In this document: one piece after another, positions 24,077-37,216 of the stretch
Layout: each line of letters opens with the position of its first letter
How positions within the stretch are numbered: the first letter of the stretch is position 1
DNA from: an uncultured Chthonomonadaceae bacterium
GTDB lineage: Bacteria; Armatimonadota; Chthonomonadetes; Chthonomonadales; Chthonomonadaceae
DNA length: 64,000 nucleotides
Assembly: GCA_963835065.1 (NCBI GenBank)
Contig: CAWIEK010000063.1
Location: 32,001-96,000, forward strand
Direction: 5' to 3'
The notes under the pieces: model-generated
Seen by the model: only the letters and a program-made list of their open reading frames with translations
Told to the model about the DNA's origin: nothing
Databases searched by the model: none
Program-made: the position numbers and the translations under genes

Positions 24077-24862
24077 ATGAACACTCCTCCCCCCGGTTCG
24101 CCAATTGAAGAAGACGCCGCGTTTGTCGAGATTGCGCCGCTGTACGACATGCTGATGACGGGTGTGCCGTATACGGAATGGATCGTGTACTTACGCAAAC
24201 TGCTGGACGAGCGCAAGGCGCGGCCCCGGCAGGTGTTGGATTTGGCGTGCGGCACGGGCAATGTGTCGGAACTGCTGGCCGGCGAAGGCTTTGCCGTGAC
24301 GGGCGTGGATATTGCGCCGGGCATGATCGCGCAGGCGCAGGCGAAAGCGGCACAGGCGAATTTGCCGATTGCGTATGCGGTGCAGGACGCGGCTCTGCTG
24401 GATCTGCCGGGCAAGCGGTTCGATTTGTGCGTGTCCCTCTTCGACAGCCTCAACTACATCACCGACCCCCTCCGATTGCAGATGGCGATGGAGCGCGTGG
24501 CCGCGCACCTGACCCGCAACGGCCTGTTCATCTTCGACCTCAATACGGAATACGCCCTTGCCAACCACTTCTTTGACCAGAACAACCTGAGCAGCAAGGA
24601 CCGCCTGCTGTACGACTGGAAAAGCGACTTCGATCCGCAAACGCGCCTGTGCCGGGTCCACATGAACTTTCGCTATACGGCGGAAGAGGGAACGGAGCGC
24701 GTATTCGAGGAAGTCCACTGGCAGTACGCTTACCGCACGGAGGAGATCGTTGCCATGCTGGAGCAGGCGGGTTTCGACCAGATCGCCACCTACAAAGCCT
24801 ACACCCTGCGCCAGCCCGTCCGCACTTCCGACCGCATCTTCTACGTCGCCCGCCGCCCGTAA
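24077..24862 (+). CDS. Class I SAM-dependent methyltransferase
   Basis: VLDLACGTG, GVDI, FDSLNY, GLFIFDLNT. Confidence 0.9.
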   Translation: MNTPPPGSPIEEDAAFVEIAPLYDMLMTGVPYTEWIVYLRKLLDERKARPRQVLDLACGTGNVSELLAGEGFAVTGVDIAPGMIAQAQAKAAQANLPIAYAVQDAALLDLPGKRFDLCVSLFDSLNYITDPLRLQMAMERVAAHLTRNGLFIFDLNTEYALANHFFDQNNLSSKDRLLYDWKSDFDPQTRLCRVHMNFRYTAEEGTERVFEEVHWQYAYRTEEIVAMLEQAGFDQIATYKAYTLRQPVRTSDRIFYVARRP

Positions 24863-25488
24863 GGGCTTTGCCATGAACAGAAGCAAGCATTTGTTGGTGA
24901 AGGTAGAACAGGAAGATACCGGCTGAAACAGCAGTGGTTTACACGGTTTGACCATCATGGAGATTGTCTAAACTGAATGGCTACCTTCTTATGGAAGTAT
25001 TGCGAAGCCGTTATTAATCGTGTGCGTTATGGATCGTTGCCAAAGGCAGAAGCGCGGATACGCGACAAGACAAGCGGGGAAACAGTTGTTGTCTTCACAG
25101 TCAGCGACGCTTTTGTGTTTACAGGAATGGTTTATAATGTTCGCAGGAGGACAGGAACATGAGTCTGACACTCGACGATACACGCCTGCTATATAGCCCA
25201 ACTTGTGCCTTATGTAAGCACCTCAAATCCGCTATGACGCCGATGTGTGATGCTTTTCCCACAGAAAACGGCATCCCGGACGAAATCTGGACGGGAAGGA
25301 ACGATCATCATCAGCCCTATCCCGGTGATCACGGTATTCAGTTTGAACATCGGAAGCAACCGACCAAAGCGGCGTCACAAGAAACCGTTTCGCGTTGATG
25401 CTGTTGTAGCAATGGCGGCTGCCCCGCCCAGTCTAATAAAATCGCCTGCGCCCTCCCGTCTGCATCTTCTACGTCGCCCGCCGCCCGT
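24834..25488 (+). repeat. 27-bp exact direct repeat duplicating the methyltransferase 3' end
   Basis: GCATCTTCTACGTCGCCCGCCGCCCGT at 24834-24860 and 25462-25488. Confidence 0.95.
25159..25398 (+). CDS. Small Cys/His protein, paralogue 1 (CxxCxH..CxAFP..GIP..PYxGDHG)
   Basis: AGGAGG at 25145-25150 and TATAAT at 25133-25138. Clear similarity to 28222-28440 and 29385-29639. Confidence 0.85.
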   Translation: MSLTLDDTRLLYSPTCALCKHLKSAMTPMCDAFPTENGIPDEIWTGRNDHHQPYPGDHGIQFEHRKQPTKAASQETVSR

Positions 25489-25500
25489 GAGGTGTTGCTT

Positions 25501-26340
25501 ATGCCCTGCGCCCTTGTGCTGCCATTGAAACCTCTGAATGTCGCGCCGATGCCCGAAGCCGTCAATGACTGCGCCCACGCCGCGTTTTTCGCACTGATTG
25601 ACAGCGTGGATGCGTTGTTGGCGCAGCGTCTGCATGGCATGGAGGAGCGCAAGCCGTTCACGCTGTGCCCGCTGTACGGAGAACCGCGCGGCAAGGATGC
25701 GCGGACGGGCGGCCCCCTTGTGCCAAGCGGCCTGCGCCTGACCCTGCTGGATGACGCGCTGTTTGCGGTTGTCGCGCACGCGCTGCTGGCGAATACAGCC
25801 GGGGCAATCCTGCGGCTGGGTGAGGCGCATTTCACGCCAACGGCGGTGTGGGTGACGGCGGACGCGCATCCGCTGGCGGGGCAGGCGGCGTATGCGGATT
25901 TGTACGGGAAGGTGGAGTCGCCCGAAACATTGACCGTGACCTTTGAAACGCCAACAGTGTTTCGGTCGCAGAAGCGCGATGTGCTGTGGCCGGAGGCGCG
26001 TTTGCTGTGGCAGTCGTGGGCGCGGGCATGGGCGGCGTTTGCGCCTTCCGTGTGCCGTCTGCCGGACGAAGCGCAAATTCTGGACTGGGCGACGCAAACG
26101 GGGGTGACAGGGCATAAACTGCAAACGCGAACCGTGCCGTTGACGGGAAGCGGGCAGGCGGGTTTCACGGGGTTTTGCGCCTACGACCTGAGCGCCCTGC
26201 CCCTGGAAGCGCGGCGAACCTTGAATACTCTGGCCGCCTTCGCCTTTTACGCGGGCACGGGCCGCAAAACCGCGATGGGCATGGGGCAAACGCGCTGCCA
26301 GCCGAACCAGCGCAAGCAAGGGATAAGGGATAAGAGATAA
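25501..26340 (+). CDS. cas6: CRISPR pre-crRNA processing endoribonuclease Cas6
   Basis: N-terminal HAAFF, KPFT, FETPTVFR, GFTG, and C-terminal G-loop FAFYAGTGRKTAMGMGQ. Adjacent to arrays. Confidence 0.92.
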   Translation: MPCALVLPLKPLNVAPMPEAVNDCAHAAFFALIDSVDALLAQRLHGMEERKPFTLCPLYGEPRGKDARTGGPLVPSGLRLTLLDDALFAVVAHALLANTAGAILRLGEAHFTPTAVWVTADAHPLAGQAAYADLYGKVESPETLTVTFETPTVFRSQKRDVLWPEARLLWQSWARAWAAFAPSVCRLPDEAQILDWATQTGVTGHKLQTRTVPLTGSGQAGFTGFCAYDLSALPLEARRTLNTLAAFAFYAGTGRKTAMGMGQTRCQPNQRKQGIRDKR

Positions 26341-26529
26341 GAGTATGTAGAGTCATCGTCGAAATCTTGGCAATGCAGCGCTTCCAGCCCGATGTCTCAT
26401 TGTGTCAAATTGTAGGAGAGAGGCGTCGTGGCCTCCAAAGCGTCAGGGCGAACGGGAGGGGTGGGACATGGGCCTGTACCTCCTTTGCTGAGTGAGTAGT
26501 TGATAGTTGATAGTTGATAGTTGATAGGA

Positions 26530-26922
26530 ACTACCAACGTTCAGCCTTTGTGCCTGGATAGTAGACACTTGTGCTATTTAGACAGGATGTGTGGGGAAAA
26601 GGTTCACTGTTTTTGTGTTGTTTGGCTCTTTTTTTCATCTTTTTTCCATCTTTTTTGCTGGATGGTTGCTGTTGGCGTCGGGCAGGAAAGGGGAGAGGGC
26701 GCTTGCCTATTCCGGTTGGACCGGCAGGATTTGCCTGCCTGCCGGCGCGAACCGGAAGTGATGGCGGCGCACGGTAGAGGTTCGCGCTGGTTAGGAGGCG
26801 TTACACCGACAATTCCTGTCAGGAAGCGGTGAAATCATCAAAACGGTCGAAAAATATTTGCAAAAAAGTGGTAAAAGAAGGAGGAATATGTCAATCAAAG
26901 GCAGAATCAAGGCATACTACCC
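26530..26922 (+). promoter_or_regulatory. Putative leader of CRISPR array 1
   Basis: Non-coding stretch with A/T tracts directly before the first repeat. Confidence 0.55.
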
Positions 26923-28159
26923 GTTGCAACGCCCGTTTGCCCCTCACGGGGATTGAAACCGCTTAACTACATTCGCGAATCTTGAGTAACATTACGCCTC
27001 GTTGCAACGCCCGTTTGCCCCTCACGGGGATTGAAACTGCCGTCTGGAACGCGCCTGTCTACCTGTTCTGGGCGTTTCGTTGCAACGCCCGTTTGCCCCT
27101 CACGGGGATTGAAACCCTTGATTGCGTCAGCATCGATCGTCGAAGCATTTCATGTTGCAACGCCCGTTTGCCCCTCACGGGGATTGAAACCTTGACTCAA
27201 ACTGTGTAGTGATGTCACGTTGTCTTGTTGCAACGCCCGTTTGCCCCTCACGGGGATTGAAACCTGACACAATGTTGCAACTCGCATTCATGCGTTAACG
27301 TTGCAACGCCCGTTTGCCCCTCACGGGGATTGAAACATGCGTCTCGGCATGACTCGTACTCTAAGTACGCGTTGCAACGCCCGTTTGCCCCTCACGGGGA
27401 TTGAAACCGCAACATGCGCACTGCGCAGGTTGCAACGCCCGTTGCCTCTCACGGGGATTGACAACGCTCGATCTGCCAGTGCACGGCAGGTTGCAACGCC
27501 CGTTTGCCCCTCACGGGGATTGAAACGTCATTCGGCAGCATGCGTAAGCCAGGTTGCAACGCCCGTTTGCCCCTCACGGGGATTGAAACATCATTTGCTG
27601 CGTATCGTTATCAACGCGGATTGGGCATGATTGGCAAGTGTATGCAACGTCCGTTCGTTTGCCCCTCACGGGGATTGAAACTCTGTCAAGCTGCGATGCG
27701 GCAGTTGCAACGCCCGTTGCCCCTACGGGGATTGAACATTCGAATCGCGGCGCTAATCAGTTGCAACGCCCGTTTGCCCCTCACGGGGATTGAAACGATC
27801 TGCCAGCGCGTTGTCAGACATCGAGCATTGCGTTGCAACGCCCGTTTGCCCCTCACGGGGATTGAAACATCCGAACCTGCCGGATACCGCTCTCGTTGCA
27901 ACGCCCGTTTGCCCCTCACGGGGATTGAACGATGCCACCTGCAGCGTTCTGGCGCAGGTTGCAACGCCCGTTTGCCCCTCACGGGGATTGAAACCTTTGC
28001 AAGCCGGTCTTCCATGTACGCCAGGCTCACGTTGCAAGCGTTGCGCCGTGTGAATTGCAACGCCCGTTTGCCCCTCACGGGGATTGAAACTCAGACGGTT
28101 GTAATGTCGGCAGCGAAACTTTGTTGCAACGCCCGTTTGCCCCTCACGGGGATTGAAAC
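26923..28159 (+). CRISPR. CRISPR array 1: 18 repeats GTTGCAACGCCCGTTTGCCCCTCACGGGGATTGAAAC (37 nt)
   Basis: Counted by eye. Several central repeats carry indels and spacers range about 21-59 nt. Orientation from the ATTGAAAC 3' end and the leader. Confidence 0.97.
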
Positions 28160-28221
28160 TTAGGCGACAGCGGCAAATTGGTGTACAATAGAAAAAACCG
28201 TTCGGAGAAGGAGGCCAGGCT

Positions 28222-28440
28222 ATGAAAGGGCATATCGAATCCGACAATTTGCCTGTGGTAAGTCAAACATGTTTCAGTTGCCGCCACTGGCAACCAGGCA
28301 ATAGGACATGTGCCGCTTTCCCGGAAGGTATTCCTCTGCCAATTTGGATGGGTGAAAACAATCACCGACAGCCTTATGCCGGCGATCATGGCATACGCTA
28401 TGAATCAGTACAACAGCCCGTTTTAGCCAAAGCCTCTTGA
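28222..28440 (+). CDS. Small Cys/His protein, paralogue 2, located between two CRISPR repeats
   Basis: AGGAGG at 28209-28214 and TACAAT at 28184-28189. CFSCRH..CAAFPEGIP..PYAGDHG. Confidence 0.85.
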   Translation: MKGHIESDNLPVVSQTCFSCRHWQPGNRTCAAFPEGIPLPIWMGENNHRQPYAGDHGIRYESVQQPVLAKAS

Positions 28441-28460
28441 CACGAGTACGCGAAGCGCGA

Positions 28461-28567
28461 GTTCGATCCGAGCGCTTCCCCTCACGGGGATTGAAACTCT
28501 GCGTTTCCTCTCTGTCGAATAGATTTATAGAAGTTGCAACGCCCGTTTGCCCCTCACGGGAATTGAC
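28461..28567 (+). CRISPR. One-spacer mini-array with two different repeat types
   Basis: 37-nt GTTCGATCCGAGCGCTTCCCCTCACGGGGATTGAAAC (28461-28497), a 35-nt spacer, then an array-1-type repeat with degenerate end (28533-28567). Confidence 0.85.
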
Positions 28568-28585
28568 TGAGATTATCCATAGAAA

Positions 28586-28624
28586 CGCAAAAACACCCTC
28601 CTACGGGTTTTTCGTAAGAGGGTG
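28586..28624 (-). terminator. Intrinsic terminator (possibly bidirectional)
   Basis: Stem CACCCTC.TACG/CGTA.GAGGGTG at 28594-28624 with an A-tract on its left. Confidence 0.65.
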
Positions 28625-28676
28625 ATGTTAGAAGGGAAAGGCAGCGACAAACATTCAGGAAAATGGACGGCTATAT

Positions 28677-28994
28677 TCAGCAACCGGAGAGCGTGACGGG
28701 TGAGGACGCGACTACTTCAACGGGGTTGTTGGCGCTGATGGGAGTGAACTCCAGCAGAACAATTGCGATGCCGTTGCCAAGACGCTGTTCAATCACAATG
28801 TCTGCTTCCTCGCCGTTCCGGGCATCGCGGCAGAGCCTTTGCAGTAGTTCCGCATCCGTCACTTGCGCCATTTGTGAAAACAATTTGCGCTTGCCGTCCG
28901 GGCGCGTCACGATTTTGGAGTAGGCGAGCATCGGCGGTTCATCTTGCGTTAAGCCATGAATTTTAACGCGCATCTTTACGGTTGTCTCGATCAT
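28677..28994 (-). CDS. Hypothetical protein (105 aa)
   Basis: GGAGG-type RBS before MIETTV. Overlaps the end of the upstream gene. Confidence 0.6.
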   Translation of the reverse strand: MIETTVKMRVKIHGLTQDEPPMLAYSKIVTRPDGKRKLFSQMAQVTDAELLQRLCRDARNGEEADIVIEQRLGNGIAIVLLEFTPISANNPVEVVASSPVTLSGC

Positions 28995-29320
28995 TGTCTC
29001 TCCTCCGGCCACGCTGCAAAACCGGCAGACGTTCCAGCACGGGCGGCAACCTTTCCAAATCCTCTCCACTTCCGCCTGTCGGAATGTATTCCATGCGGAA
29101 CAGGTCAAAGACGCCTTCTTGATTGTACCGTCTTCCAAGCAAAATCACTTTGCGCATAACTGCGATCAGGAAAAACGCTCACCGAATACAGGCGCTGCCC
29201 TGCCTGATCGCCAAAGTACAAACTAAAGGTTGCGCCGCCGTTTGCCTCATGCAATTGCAAGATCGTTTCGGATGCTTGTTCAACGTCCTGTCTTGCAGGC
29301 AACTCCGTATCAGAGCGCAT
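28963..29320 (-). pseudogene. Hypothetical protein broken by a frameshift or internal deletion near 29160
   Basis: N part MRSDTE..NGGATFSLYFGD..LYSVSVFPDRS and C part LGRRYNQEGVFDLFRMEYIPTGGSGE are in different frames. Confidence 0.55.
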
Positions 29321-29384
29321 TAAGTACGATTTGAGAGTGTTTGCCACACGAATAGAATTCATCAACAGAACGGAATTGTCCTGC

Positions 29385-29639
29385 ATGATCAAGACGATAC
29401 AATGTGCTTTTTGCATCCACTACGAACCGGACAGAAAGCCACAGAGCGGCGAACAGAGGTCGCTTGCGCGTGGGTGTTGCGCGGCCTTTCCTGATGGCAT
29501 CCCGGAGGCAATGGTGGAGGGGCGGCATGACCACCGCCTGCCGTATCCGGGTGATCATGGAGTTCGATTAGAATTAATGCCGGGACTTACGCCAGCATTA
29601 TTGGGCGATTTGCCGGAGCCAATGCGGAAAGCCTCTTGA
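29385..29639 (+). CDS. Small Cys/His protein, paralogue 3
   Basis: CAFCIH..CAAFPDGIP..HRLPYPGDHGV; ATG at 29385. Confidence 0.8.
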   Translation: MIKTIQCAFCIHYEPDRKPQSGEQRSLARGCCAAFPDGIPEAMVEGRHDHRLPYPGDHGVRLELMPGLTPALLGDLPEPMRKAS

Positions 29640-30036: not shown

Positions 30037-31363
30037 GTTCAAATGAAGGGCTTCCCCTCACGGGGATTGAAACGTTATCGGCACGCTGACCTCATATTGC
30101 CCAGAGCGCTGGTTCAAATGAAGGGCTTCCCCTCACGGGGATTGAAACGTCGTTAGCTGCGATGAATTGCTCAGTTTCTTGCTAGTTCAAATGAAGGGCT
30201 TCCCCTCACGGGGATTGAAACGGGCATGTACCATGAAATTCATTCCTAACCTCTCGTATGTTCAAATGAAGGGCTTCCCCTCACGGGGATTGAAACGTGA
30301 CTCCGATCGTCCAGCATACGGTGCCTCGTACTGCCGTGTTCAAATGAAGGGCTTCCCCTCACGGGGATTGAAACGCGATGGCCGTCCTCGTCACAGTTGC
30401 GATGATCCGGCACGCGTTCAAATGAAGGGCTTCCCCTCACGGGGATTGAAACGTTCCGCATGCGGCCAGCGAGGCTCTGTACCTGCTGCTATGTTCAAAT
30501 GAAGGGCTTCCCCTCACGGGGATTGAAACGGCAGACGCTTCCAGCGAATCAGATGCTTCGCATGCGGTTCAAATGAAGGGCTTCCCCTCACGGGGATTGA
30601 AACGCCCGTACGCATGCAGTATCGACGATCGTGCAAGCTTAGCCTGTTCAAATGAAGGGCTTCCCCTCACGGGGATTGAAACGCATGCGATGCAGGTGAT
30701 CGCATGTGCTATCGCTGTCGGGGTTCAAATGAAGGGCTTCCCCTCACGGGGATTGAAACGACCATGATCTAGAGACATTGAGCGTAGCTACCTTGACCTG
30801 TTCAAATGAAGGGCTTCCCCTCACGGGGATTGAAACGTCTGATCGGCATATAGCCGTTTATGAGCCTGCCGCCGTTCAAATGAAGGGCTTCCCCTCACGG
30901 GGATTGAAACGGTCAGCTCCGCCAACTTGACGTATTGCGAAGCTGCGCGGTTCAAATGAAGGGCTTCCCCTCACGGGGATTGAAACGACAAGACTTCCGA
31001 TGAATGTCGTTCACGAGCTTCATACGTTCAAATGAAGGGCTTCCCCTCACGGGGATTGAAACAGTGACATGCGATGCACGAAGCGTGTCATGCTAGATCG
31101 GCTCGTTCAAATGAAGGGCTTCCCCTCACGGGGATTGAAACGCGCCCGTCAGCGAGCAATCCCATGGCCCTTGGTCCGTTCAAATGAAGGGCTTCCCCTC
31201 ACGGGGATTGAAACGTCAAGTGGCTGCCACACCATTCGCAGTAGCGCTCCACGTTCAAATGAAGGGCTTCCCCTCACGGGGATTGAAACGACTTCACGAC
31301 CTGTCCTGACGTTCAGCCAGCTGGACGCGACGTTCAAATGAAGGGCTTCCCCTCACGGGGATT
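30037..31363 (+). CRISPR. CRISPR array 2: 18 repeats GTTCAAATGAAGGGCTTCCCCTCACGGGGATTGAAAC (37 nt), last one degenerate
   Basis: Counted by eye; 17 spacers of about 36-42 nt. Confidence 0.97.
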
Positions 31364-31439
31364 TGAGTTGAGGGTGATTGCCGCCGGGTGTGAAGGCGCG
31401 GCTTTTGTTCGTGGAACCATCGTGCTGTTGTTGCTTCGG

Positions 31440-32474
31440 ATGGAGAACGCCCGTGCTGTTTGGGGAACTGACGCCACTTCAACGCCTGAGCCTGCTGCCC
31501 TGGCTGCCTGCGCCTGATTTTGCGCCGCTTGCCCCGGAAGAAGCGGACGTTTTGCGGCAGGCGCGGGACCTTGCCGGGGATTTCGGACGCTTTGCCCGTT
31601 GCGCTGCAAACCCCGTTTGCCGGGCTGCGCGTTCCCGCCATAGGGGATATGCCCGGATGCCTGCCGCCGCCCGTCACCTACTGGCCGCTTTCTCCTGCCG
31701 ATCCGCCCGATGTTCGCCCGCCCGATATTGCCGCTTGCCTGCGCGATTGGCAGGCCGACGTGAACGGGCTGAACCTGCTTCCCGCCGTTTCTTTTTCGCG
31801 CCGCTACGCCGCTCTGATGGGACTGGCGCAATCCCATGCGGCCTGTCTTGGCCTGCCCGGTCAGCCCGACATTCCCCTGCTGCAAAGCCGCCGTTTGTGG
31901 AGCGCCCTTGCCGCCTGCCTGTGGACGCTGCGGCAAACACCCGGCGACGGGGAGGAACTCGCCCTGCTTGTGGCCGATCTGTCCGGCATCCAGTCGTACC
32001 TGTTCGGAACCTCTGACGTTCGGCGTGGGCGGCGTGGCCCGTTCCCTCCGCGCCCGCAGTTTCTTTTTGTCGCAAATCACCGCCCTGTTCGCGTGGCGGC
32101 TGCTGGAACAACTGGAACTCCCGCCCGGCAATCTGCTGCTCGACGCTGCGGGCAAGTTCTACCTGCTGTTCGCGCCCACGCCCCGCGCCCTTGCGATTGT
32201 GGAACAGGCCCGGTGCGAAGCCGCCGTCTGGTGTCTCCACGAACTGCACGGCGAACTGGCCCTCAACGTCGGCGTCACCCGCTTTCCGCTTTCCGCCTTC
32301 ACGGATGGCAGTATCGCCCGCGCGTGGCAGGACGCGCAGCAGTCTATCGCGCAGGCCAAGCAGCAGAAATTACGGGACGCGCTGCAAATCTTGGACGGGC
32401 AATGGCCGGGTTGTTTAACTCCGATTGTGGCCGGTGACAGGCGTAACAGTCGTTTCACCCCATCACGATGTTGA
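31440..32474 (+). pseudogene. cas10: Cas10/Csm1 remnant (first Palm region), frameshifted, no HD domain, truncated before GGDD
   Basis: LLVADLSGIQSYLF, then (shifted frame) ARSLRARSFFL..NLLLDAAGKFYLL..AKQQK, matching Csm1 GDxSGIQxF / LRGRSF / GGxFYLL. Ends at the leuS 3' end. Confidence 0.8.
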
Positions 32475-35636: not shown

Positions 35637-37050
35637 TTACGCGGGTTGGCGCAAAACGAGCGGCACAAGAGCTTGATCTTCCAGAATGGTTTTAACGCGG
35701 CTGGAAGCCGCAAGCGCGCGGATACCTTCCGGGGTTGTTTCCACAGGAAGCACACCGAGAGCATTGGGACGTTCCGCTAATCGTTTTCCGGCAGTCTGCG
35801 CAAGGATAAGATCAATTTCCGGCAGAACAGCCTCCGTCAAATTGCGTACTGCCTGCGCAAGTTCCTGACGCTCGGCGCGGGTGCGCGGCGGTTTTTCAGG
35901 AGCGGCAACGCCGGAAACGTGCGGGGTTGCCATAGACGTGCCATTCATGTAGGTATACTCAACCGTACCCGTCGGACGTTCCGCGGCGGAATACAGGAGT
36001 ATACCTGTACGCCGGGGGCGGCGACATCGGGCTTTGTGACCGAATCCGGCGTTTCGCCGGGAAAGACCAAACTTGCGCCGCTGCTGAACGCGGCAATGTC
36101 CAACTTGCCGCCGGGCATCTTTTCCACCGCGCCGACAGAGAACGTATTATAGACGCTGCCGGGACAACTGGTGTTACCATGATTTTCGTTACCGATAGCC
36201 ACAACGGGCAAGATGTTGTACAGTTCGATCAGCGGCCTGAGAACTTCCACAAAGGGTCCGTAAAAGTATAAGTTCCCGTTTGCAAAGGTCAGCGTTCCCG
36301 CCTGTTCGGGAAGTTATACTTTTACGAACCCAAAGTAGGGTTCATAGTAGGTGAAGCCAAGCGACATATTGATGATGTCTACACCGTGATCCACCGCCCA
36401 ATCAATACCCTCCACCAGTGTTCGCAGCGTCGAGTCGCCAACCAGAACGCCGCCGACAAAAAGATTGGCTTCGGGCGCGACGCCGATGGCAACGCCTTCC
36501 GGGGTTTTGCCGCCCGCAATCGTGCCGCAAACATGCGTACCGTGCATCCCCGCATCGAACGAAAGGCTGGAAGTAATACGCCGTCCTAACGGGTCAACAA
36601 GGATAAATTCTGCAATACGATCCCGCAAGGCCGGATGTTCGCCATGAACGCCGTATCCAGAACGGCTACATTGATATCGGCTCCTCTGGTCTGCTCCCAT
36701 AGTTTTGGGATGCCAAGCTGTTTCAATCCCCAGGTTACGCCGTCCTTGCTTTCCTGACGGCCTAACTCGTTGTAGTTGACTTCTTTTGACTGAATCAGGC
36801 GTATCTTCTGATTCGGCAGAATAGCGATCACTTCCGGCCTTGCGGCAAGGTCGGGCAGCGTTTTCCGAGTCACTTCCACATTGGCAATCGGCAGCGTGGT
36901 TTTGCCAATTGCGGATACTGCCAATTCCTGATGGCCGGGAAGCTGTTTGGAACCTTTCGCCTGATAATCTTCCAGAAAAGCGGCCTGAACCTGCGAGAAT
37001 GGCAAACAGGTAGACAAATCCTTTCGGTAAGGGAATAGAGGGGAGGTCGC
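35637..37050 (-). pseudogene. Subtilisin-like S8 peptidase, fragmented, fused to the end of a downstream small gene
   Basis: VAVLDT, HGTHVCGTIAG, VVAIGN, KPDVAAPG and NGTSMATPHVSG are spread over four ORFs. Confidence 0.85.
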
Positions 37051-37058
37051 AACTCCAC

Positions 37059-37216
37059 AGGCGAGAGTGTGGTTGCCCTTGACCACTTCCAGAGCCAGTT
37101 TTGCTTTGAACTCGGCAGAATAGCGTTTACGGGTTGTAGACATGGTAGGTTCTCCTGTGTTCATTGTGACACAGCCACCACCTTAAACCACTGTCCGAAT
37201 TCTTGGGGTCATTATA
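37059..37216 (-). mobile_element. IS3-family left-end remnant
   Basis: OrfA start MSTTRKRYSAEFKAKLALEVVKGNHTLA (ATG at 37143) preceded by an IR-like TATAATGACCCCAAGAATTCGGACA...TTAAGG. The rest is missing. Confidence 0.7.

Follow-up and report, generated by a model that had tools for sequence, protein, structure and literature searches.

Hosts reportedly stockpile immunity genes without the corresponding toxins, as Ross and colleagues are said to have described in 2019 under the name AID/rAID, in connection with type VI secretion effectors and a tyrosine recombinase. Tandem orphan immunity genes and multi-domain fusions that serve as back-up were described as polyimmunity loci and polyimmunity proteins by Zhang et al. 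(2012; PMC3482391). For phage toxins, the main text of Jamet et al. (2017; PMC5576092) reports a short open reading frame (ORF) after 89.4% of 191 MuF toxin genes and proposes a role in immunity. Here, a family of small Cys/His proteins was analysed which occurs in three copies around cas6 and two CRISPR arrays in a stretch of 64,000 nucleotides (the window) from an uncultured Chthonomonadaceae bacterium (assembly GCA_963835065.1, contig CAWIEK010000063.1, positions 32,001 to 96,000 of the forward strand); coordinates given without a contig or locus name refer to the window. Based on gene context, co-clustering with the toxin class and structure prediction of a complex (cofold), the family quite probably represents new MuF-toxin immunity proteins and not Cas proteins. 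The complete explanation, namely orphan MuF-toxin immunity genes of which some are stored as gene-sized spacers, is likewise judged probable, while its boldest part, the capture and expression of these genes by the CRISPR machinery itself, is put forward tentatively, as something short of an even chance.

All three genes lie on the forward strand: copy 1 (79 aa; 25159..25398) before cas6, copy 2 (72 aa; 28222..28440) inside array 1, where the repeat before it is perfect and ends at 28159 and the one after it is a variant (28461..28497), and copy 3 (84 aa; 29385..29639) before leader 2. Copies 2 and 3 are 44% and 43% identical to copy 1, respectively, and the motifs C-x2-C-x-H, C-x-AFP, GIP, G-x3-H, PY-x-GDHG and a final E are common to all three. 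An earlier note, made from the sequence alone, had already described these ORFs and their placement, the absence of a further copy and the lack of likeness to known Cas families, all of which was confirmed: a profile of the three copies found no fourth one in the window, and no Pfam or NCBIfam family and no cas family model matched them. A match to DZR_2 (E 0.05) was disregarded. PHROG 33375, a group of unknown function, matched all three copies weakly (E 3e-6 to 3e-4), the closest named homologues come from Chthonomonadaceae, and the Atlas neighbours are mostly viral or bacterial hypothetical proteins. The family comprises 9,103 clusters at 50% identity (E up to 0.001), in which some proteins hold two to four copies of the domain as fusions, and tandem arrays exist. 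Tandem runs of three to six diverged copies at L014, L020, L063, L112, L387 and L602 resemble homogeneous polyimmunity loci.

The viral context was studied in the best 80 of 151 viral loci. There, the phage gene overlaps the stop codon of a gene for a MuF head protein ending in a RadC-like JAB, a zincin or an ADP-ribosyltransferase (ART) domain. One of these domains was found directly upstream of 60 of 70 distinct viral genes, 49 times on proteins of at least 400 aa, a count which is partly circular because the toxin profiles were seeded from the same loci. A plain motif count gave a toxin domain upstream of 75 of 87 viral genes, duplicates being left unmerged. Among 46 selected long upstream viral proteins, 37 matched Phage_Mu_F or Phage_min_cap2 in Pfam, 7 matched ADPrib_exo_Tox, and one is a portal fusion. 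In the annotated phage lotta8-1 the gene lies 3' of the gene for a PF04233 protein in the head module, and a weak relative in Brevibacillus phage Jenst does not adjoin an annotated MuF gene. The statement in the earlier note that similar proteins occur downstream of MuF/ADP-ribosyltransferase toxin genes is thus supported by the viral gene context. The toxin domain with the HNHP motif was predicted with a pLDDT of 96.5 to have a RadC/JAMM-like fold (Foldseek probability 0.99, E 2e-3), and RadC-type JAB domains have been proposed to act on nucleic acids or nucleotides (Iyer et al.; PMC5512222). The AlphaFold model of the small protein reached a pLDDT of 81 and had no match in the PDB by Foldseek, VIA-align or sequence, and BFVD gave only uncharacterised phage proteins. 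The three invariant Cys and the His in its sequence suggest a structural zinc.

Association with a particular toxin class is also visible within the family. In a tree of 168 rows and 71 columns, which was calculated by a quick method, has weak supports and contains kin that are not independent, the toxin class clusters strongly (30 changes versus 76.5 after shuffling, with 0 of 200 shuffles as low), and copies 1 and 2 are placed with JAB-linked genes and copy 3 with zincin-linked genes. N-terminal to the first Cys, 63 of 71 JAB-linked proteins carry a hydrophobic-Asp motif, compared with 3 of 57 zincin-linked and 4 of 21 ART-linked ones; the pattern was widened to admit the variant of copy 2. 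The cofold of the intact JAB domain encoded on contig C49 with its partner scored 0.85, the best control 0.00; the mark set for such scores was reached by 116 of 157 solved pairs and 2 of 215 mismatched pairs, counts which are only roughly valid with the alignments and zinc used here. The runs share at least 92% of their contacts, with a partner pLDDT of at least 87, and no solved complex of this family was found that would explain the score as memorised. In the model, partner residues 1-8, which hold the hydrophobic-Asp motif, contact toxin residues 42-49, H62, H64 and 71-77, i.e. the invariant active-site region, which supports the view that the JAB-linked partner may plug the active site of the toxin. 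With gene context, toxin-class clustering and this modelled contact, the suggestion of orphan immunity genes in the earlier note has gained support.

The profile of the three window copies found eight copies in the 8.0-Mb genome, the five outside the window being on contigs C26, C49, C62, C53 and C44 (E 5e-24 to 1e-15; next match E 0.05). Five of the eight copies adjoin no array, de novo arrays being located on C2, C42, C49, C63 and C69, and the family is therefore not a Cas family. On C49 the copy and the stop of a 198-aa ORF carrying the HNHP motif overlap, the copy on C44 lies 3' of an HExxH remnant, and the copy on C53 is frameshifted and lies 3' of a toxin-like tail. Near-identical copies with the same upstream gene are present at C26:12426 and C62:2-238 on different contigs, which reflects either a duplication or a strain mixture in the assembly.

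In the window, copy 1, which belongs to the JAB-linked subfamily and carries an N-terminal LDD motif, is preceded by a RadC-like JAB toxin domain reduced by an internal deletion to a remnant (24977..25162, forward strand, 61 aa), the stop of which overlaps the start of copy 1. The remnant retains the start and the last codons while the HNHP core is gone, and it is 60% identical to the intact C49 domain over 40 aa, in addition to 8 of the final 10 residues. This first cassette is flanked by a 44-nt direct repeat on the forward strand, with the left copy (24821..24864) at the 3' end of a methyltransferase gene (24077-24862, forward strand, Methyltransf_25) and the right copy, which closes the cassette, at 25449..25492 (89% identity). 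Copy 2, likewise of the JAB-linked subfamily, is carried by a 301-nt gene-sized spacer (28160..28460, forward strand) that contains, in this order, a 21-codon probable toxin tail, a ribosome-binding site, the gene for the putative immunity protein and 20 nt. The tail begins at the first base 3' of the perfect R1 repeat; it was likened to JAB tails by eye, and its own profile score is not significant (E 1.8). The cassette is closed by a repeat of a third type, R3 (28461..28497, forward strand), which differs from R1 at 11 of 37 positions and from R2, the repeat of array 2, at 6, the 3' 20 nt with a hairpin and an 8-nt handle being common to them. Copy 3, of the zincin-linked subfamily and with a short N-terminus, is an orphan that is not bounded by repeats. 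That the genes are cargo between repeats was unforeseen in the earlier note, which also missed the toxin remnant, the toxin tail, the 44-nt duplication and a broken cas10/csm1. The TATAAT/TACAAT hexamers that precede copies 1 and 2 correspond to the toxin tail's VYN codons; no promoter was called on them, although they might also serve as -10 boxes.

In order to see how far the link to CRISPR extends, cellular loci of the family were gathered by motif scans that did not select for CRISPR, which resulted in at least 367 loci outside this genome, some of them short. Up to 600 nt from the gene, a span of 0.36 Mb in total, seven de novo arrays were found, compared with none in the 1.09 Mb of flank lying farther out (p=6e-5 for 367 loci, three of which were re-fetched longer once the array had been seen). 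Counted with a repeat library drawn from the same loci and with L450 (repeat-like, 7 mismatches) excluded, 13 of the 367 cellular loci have a repeat at most 600 nt from the gene, and none of the 62 viral loci does. Even scatter without CRISPR enrichment, which the earlier note had set against its own proposal, was therefore found in part: the copies are indeed scattered in this genome, but across genomes there is a small and real enrichment. Surveys of 301 genomes of the same phylum and of 251 genomes of the archaeal order of G041, of which 29 and 26, respectively, carry the family, added only two CRISPR cases, both with truncated genes.

The gene is enclosed by repeats in six other genomes, with several repeat types and in both bacteria and archaea; repeat types (I-E, I-C, III-like) and direction are presumed from consensus sequences. 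In a Methanosarcinaceae genome (L047) four DR7 repeats (Rfam) alternate with three cassettes (491, 433 and 335 nt), of which the central one holds an ART-like tail and another small gene. In a Chthonomonadaceae genome (L060), after a DR9 repeat (Rfam), a whole JAB domain and the gene are followed by a degenerate repeat and a second gene. The cassettes of L567 (Methanosarcinales, 505 nt, one difference between the flanking repeats), L569 (414 nt, identical flanking repeats) and L568 (Chlorobium, 353 nt, antisense) are enclosed as well, as is the gene of L032 (Bacillota), where the upstream repeat is partial. Directly 3' of a repeat, the gene was found in L026, where repeats separate at least two small-gene cassettes in a row, and in L639 and L640, where both genes are truncated; in L560 it precedes an array on a contig that is cut, and in L017, L078 and L326 it is merely near a repeat. 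The toxin-tail profile matches L568 (E 1.5e-8) and L567 (E 3e-8) from the first codon behind the repeat onwards, so that the exact joining of foreign DNA to repeat ends is significant for these two loci, while for the window, L032, L047 and L026 it was seen by eye. Repeat-bounded cassettes measure 301-773 nt, compared with 30-45 nt for spacers acquired by Cas1-Cas2. Wherever an ordinary array precedes the gene (window, L567, L568, L569, L639) it lies at the trailer end, and ordinary spacers are absent from L047, L060 and L032. As an arrangement, the repeated occurrence of the gene between CRISPR repeats is real. Viral searches with the other small cassette genes gave nothing, or one 18-residue match, and these genes are therefore tied to MuF toxins by motif only.

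The following course of events is proposed. In temperate phages the gene lies, as its context shows, directly 3' of MuF-JAB, MuF-zincin or MuF-ART genes, and according to the model the JAB-linked partner would lay its N-terminal hydrophobic-Asp strand over the metal site. As the sequences show, cells retain short phage-derived pieces with the partner gene, in which the toxin has been cut, has been deleted or has lost its MuF part. Some pieces, 300-770 nt in length, sit between repeats as spacers, presumably through a capture step, and would last at the trailer end or in arrays without ordinary spacers. A co-oriented cassette would be transcribed with its array, cuts by Cas6 at both repeats could release a one-gene mRNA, and the immunity protein would blunt the toxin injected by an incoming phage. 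In the window, copy 2 would be such a repeat-bounded cassette, and copies 1 and 3 orphans that reached the same hot spot by other means. Arrays of several types, bacterial and archaeal, would then be a second kind of memory, for which we see less than an even chance: the adaptation machinery would now and then integrate gene-sized phage fragments, and those coding for antidotes to an injected MuF toxin would be kept during the turnover of ordinary spacers, expressed, released by Cas6 and moved by repeat recombination. If true, immunity would stem from the protein encoded by a spacer and not from base pairing.

Several observations weigh against this explanation. The cofold covers a single pair of the JAB class, that of C49 outside the window, and one small fold neutralising three unrelated enzyme classes would be unusual. 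No repeat was found within 600 nt in 354 of the 367 cellular loci, and many orphan genes are flanked by duplications that are not CRISPR repeats; CRISPR is thus a minority landing site. L060 retains the entire toxin domain, its cassette being 67% identical over 722 nt to the repeat-free cassette of C49, and the truncated genes of L639 and L640 are not explained by selection for immunity. No Cas1 match was found in two of five genomes tested, no close donor phage for any cassette was present among the collected loci, and neither a protospacer-adjacent motif nor a transcript was found. The window cassette itself has no identical repeat on both sides (R1 versus R3), and no read or contig from the four DNA sequencing runs examined spans a repeat-cassette junction of the window; short read contigs, from a small share of these runs, cover 24987-25348 with 0 differences and 28189-28345 with 5. 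Moreover, several spacers of array 1 are only 20-25 nt long with repeats bearing indels, and same-base neighbours are rarer in the window spacers (26960-28120, 30074-31250) than in other arrays (0.15-0.16 versus 0.24-0.29), which is possibly a long-read consensus artefact or due to an unusual donor.

Many of these points would be accommodated if the genes were immunity genes with a passive link to CRISPR, a reading that we find plausible without thinking it the probable one: cassettes would spread by a general route at 20-130-nt repeats, for which CRISPR repeats and decayed cas loci are tolerant landing sites, and Cas1-Cas2 and Cas6 would be uninvolved. A duplicated gene end flanks copy 1, L006, L085 and a two-gene cassette in G001, the L060 cassette has its repeat-free relative, the opening and closing repeats in the window are unlike, and the local cas10 is broken in addition to the missing Cas1 matches. 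Junctions exactly at repeat ends, with several repeat types and in both domains of life, speak against a passive link, as do the three successive cassettes of L047 and at least two of L026 punctuated by repeats and the enrichment of arrays beside the gene with none in farther flanks. The flanking direct repeats and the phage origin could also be explained if prophages had entered a CRISPR repeat or a gene end and had decayed until only the cassettes were left. Varble reportedly observed in 2021 that prophages integrate into CRISPR repeats, but we consider such an origin improbable here: the inserts begin within the last codons of the toxin at the repeat edge, no integrase or other phage gene was noticed in the cassettes inspected, and the three stacked cassettes of L047 would require three decays.

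Concerning the protein itself, a non-inhibitory helper of MuF effectors in general, acting as a chaperone, as an adaptor in packaging, as a metal donor or as a regulator, would fit the association of one invariant core with three unrelated effector classes, and the modelled binding would suit a chaperone equally well. Such a role is unlikely, since the modelled contact covers the catalytic histidines, cells retain the gene once the effector is lost, and the N-terminus varies with the toxin class. The earlier note had further considered a new CRISPR accessory or regulator and a CRISPR-linked addiction toxin. The defining feature of CreTA is a mini-array guide that partly matches the toxin promoter, and the three copies around cas6 and two arrays, together with a 35-nt spacer between variant repeats after copy 2, recall such a system. 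No target was found in the genome for this spacer, whose best matches amount to 21/35 nt elsewhere in the window and 13-16 nt genome-wide, nor was one found for a CreA-like guide; the gene is retained as the toxin decays, there is no Cas family match, most genomic copies lie off arrays, repeats are near few cellular loci and no viral one, and the phage MuF context dominates. We therefore regard both the accessory role and the CreTA-like toxin as very improbable.

The genes lie in the order methyltransferase, copy 1, cas6, array 1, copy 2, R3, spacer, degenerate R1, two reverse-strand ORFs, copy 3, array 2 and cas10/csm1. cas6 (25492..26340, forward strand) matches PF10040 (E 1e-18) and PF19308 (E 5e-13), with TIGR01877 under its cut-off, and a repeat-like 38-mer over its start was taken as a coding coincidence. 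Between cas6 and leader 1 (26340-26650) lies a high-copy dispersed repeat with more than 30 matches in G002, at which a read-depth spike was present in all four DNA runs. Array 1 (26923..28159, forward strand) has 18 cores of the 37-nt repeat R1, several with indels and short spacers; after copy 2 and R3, the final 35-nt spacer and a degenerate terminal R1 repeat (28498..28569, forward strand) form the trailer end, which is followed by a strong, terminator-like hairpin (28594..28624; T run on the reverse strand, z -4.0). Array 2 (30037..31368, forward strand) has 18 repeats of type R2. The spacers of both arrays have no target in the genome or the collected loci. According to the structure model, the best structure of R2 and R3 is the 3' hairpin, whereas R1, with the same bases, folds differently. 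Downstream lie pieces of a broken type III-A cas10/csm1 in different frames (31520..32474, forward strand; TIGR02578 E 2e-8 and 5e-26, Csm1_B), then a gene which is presumably leuS-like from its motifs, and at 35637-37164 a fragmented gene, presumably subtilase-like with a transposase-like start.

Within the R1/R3 repeat family, the 5' half of the repeat is particular to each array in relatives. The copy 2 cassette probably came from an array of R3 type through crossing over within the 20 nt common to both repeats: a circle of the cassette and one R3 would thereby yield exactly the observed order R1-cassette-R3-spacer-R1. In two genomes of the same genus the methyltransferase gene is followed by other small cassettes, with no cas6, arrays or family member there, which suggests a hot spot for insertions at this site and a recent gathering of the three copies. 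Small cassettes with a 20-130-nt duplication of the 3' end of the neighbouring gene are present at 24821/25449 of the window and at L006, L168, L085 and L584. Between array 1 and copy 3 lies, on the reverse strand, a two-gene cassette whose first gene is broken (28963-29416) and whose second, a 105-aa gene of another small family with 10 homologues (28677..28994), is intact. This cassette (a 176-aa protein and a 93-105-aa partner; L583:1107-1915) is intact in the same-genus genomes G002 and G001, in the latter flanked by a duplicated gene end, and is perhaps another effector-partner pair; for the broken gene, a possible SAM-lyase-like identity found no confirmation in Pfam or the Atlas. Elsewhere in the genome, Cas1 is encoded on C44, C49 and C15. 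At C49:678900-686000 (L565) cas6, a reverse transcriptase gene and cas1 adjoin a 26-repeat array, an RT-linked adaptation module with the potential to acquire spacers from RNA. Behind a lone R4-like CRISPR repeat at C37:64854-65518 (L570) come a hairpin, a stretch resembling a promoter and two small genes, of which the second presumably resembles the Phd/YefM antitoxin, and the whole may be another repeat-linked antitoxin cassette.

With this analysis, a probable function and, from the model, a possible inhibitory mechanism can be named for a very large unannotated phage protein family. Hosts that hoard antidotes imply that MuF toxins are delivered and harmful, and the role of MuF toxins becomes testable. 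If the cassettes are products of Cas1-Cas2, arrays can capture and express whole genes and CRISPR adaptation joins integron-like gene capture, which would be relevant to genome engineers seeking larger Cas1-Cas2 insertions. A literature search, largely without subscription papers, yielded no report of genes that serve as spacers or of immunity genes located within CRISPR arrays.

Compared with the systems described so far, the phage genes share with the MuF toxins of Jamet et al. (2017) the order of MuF head protein, C-terminal metallopeptidase or ART and small ORF, while the Cys/His family, JAB domains, orphans, host capture and CRISPR are not covered in the main text of PMC5576092, whose supplements could list the family. 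In the part of the PMC3482391 table that was compared, no Imm row matches the family motif, with the same reservation for its supplements, and the Tox-JAB-1/-2 partners Imm65 and Imm-NTF2-2 are described there with other motifs. PHROG 33375 remains a weak relative of the family, which has no match to a solved fold. As in SUKH and SuFu (Zhang et al. 2012), one scaffold would serve several toxin classes; accumulation is tied there to XerC/D-type recombinases, whereas the separators here are CRISPR repeats. The orphan stockpiling resembles that of AID/rAID, with the difference that the effectors here are phage-delivered and the boundaries are CRISPR repeats. Tn7-like transposons in arrays (PMC11837452) are likewise foreign DNA inside an array; such transposons and prophages inserted into arrays are whole selfish elements with their own transposase or integrase, whereas the cassettes described here are pieces of 0.3-0.8 kb without a mobility gene that are joined to the repeat ends.

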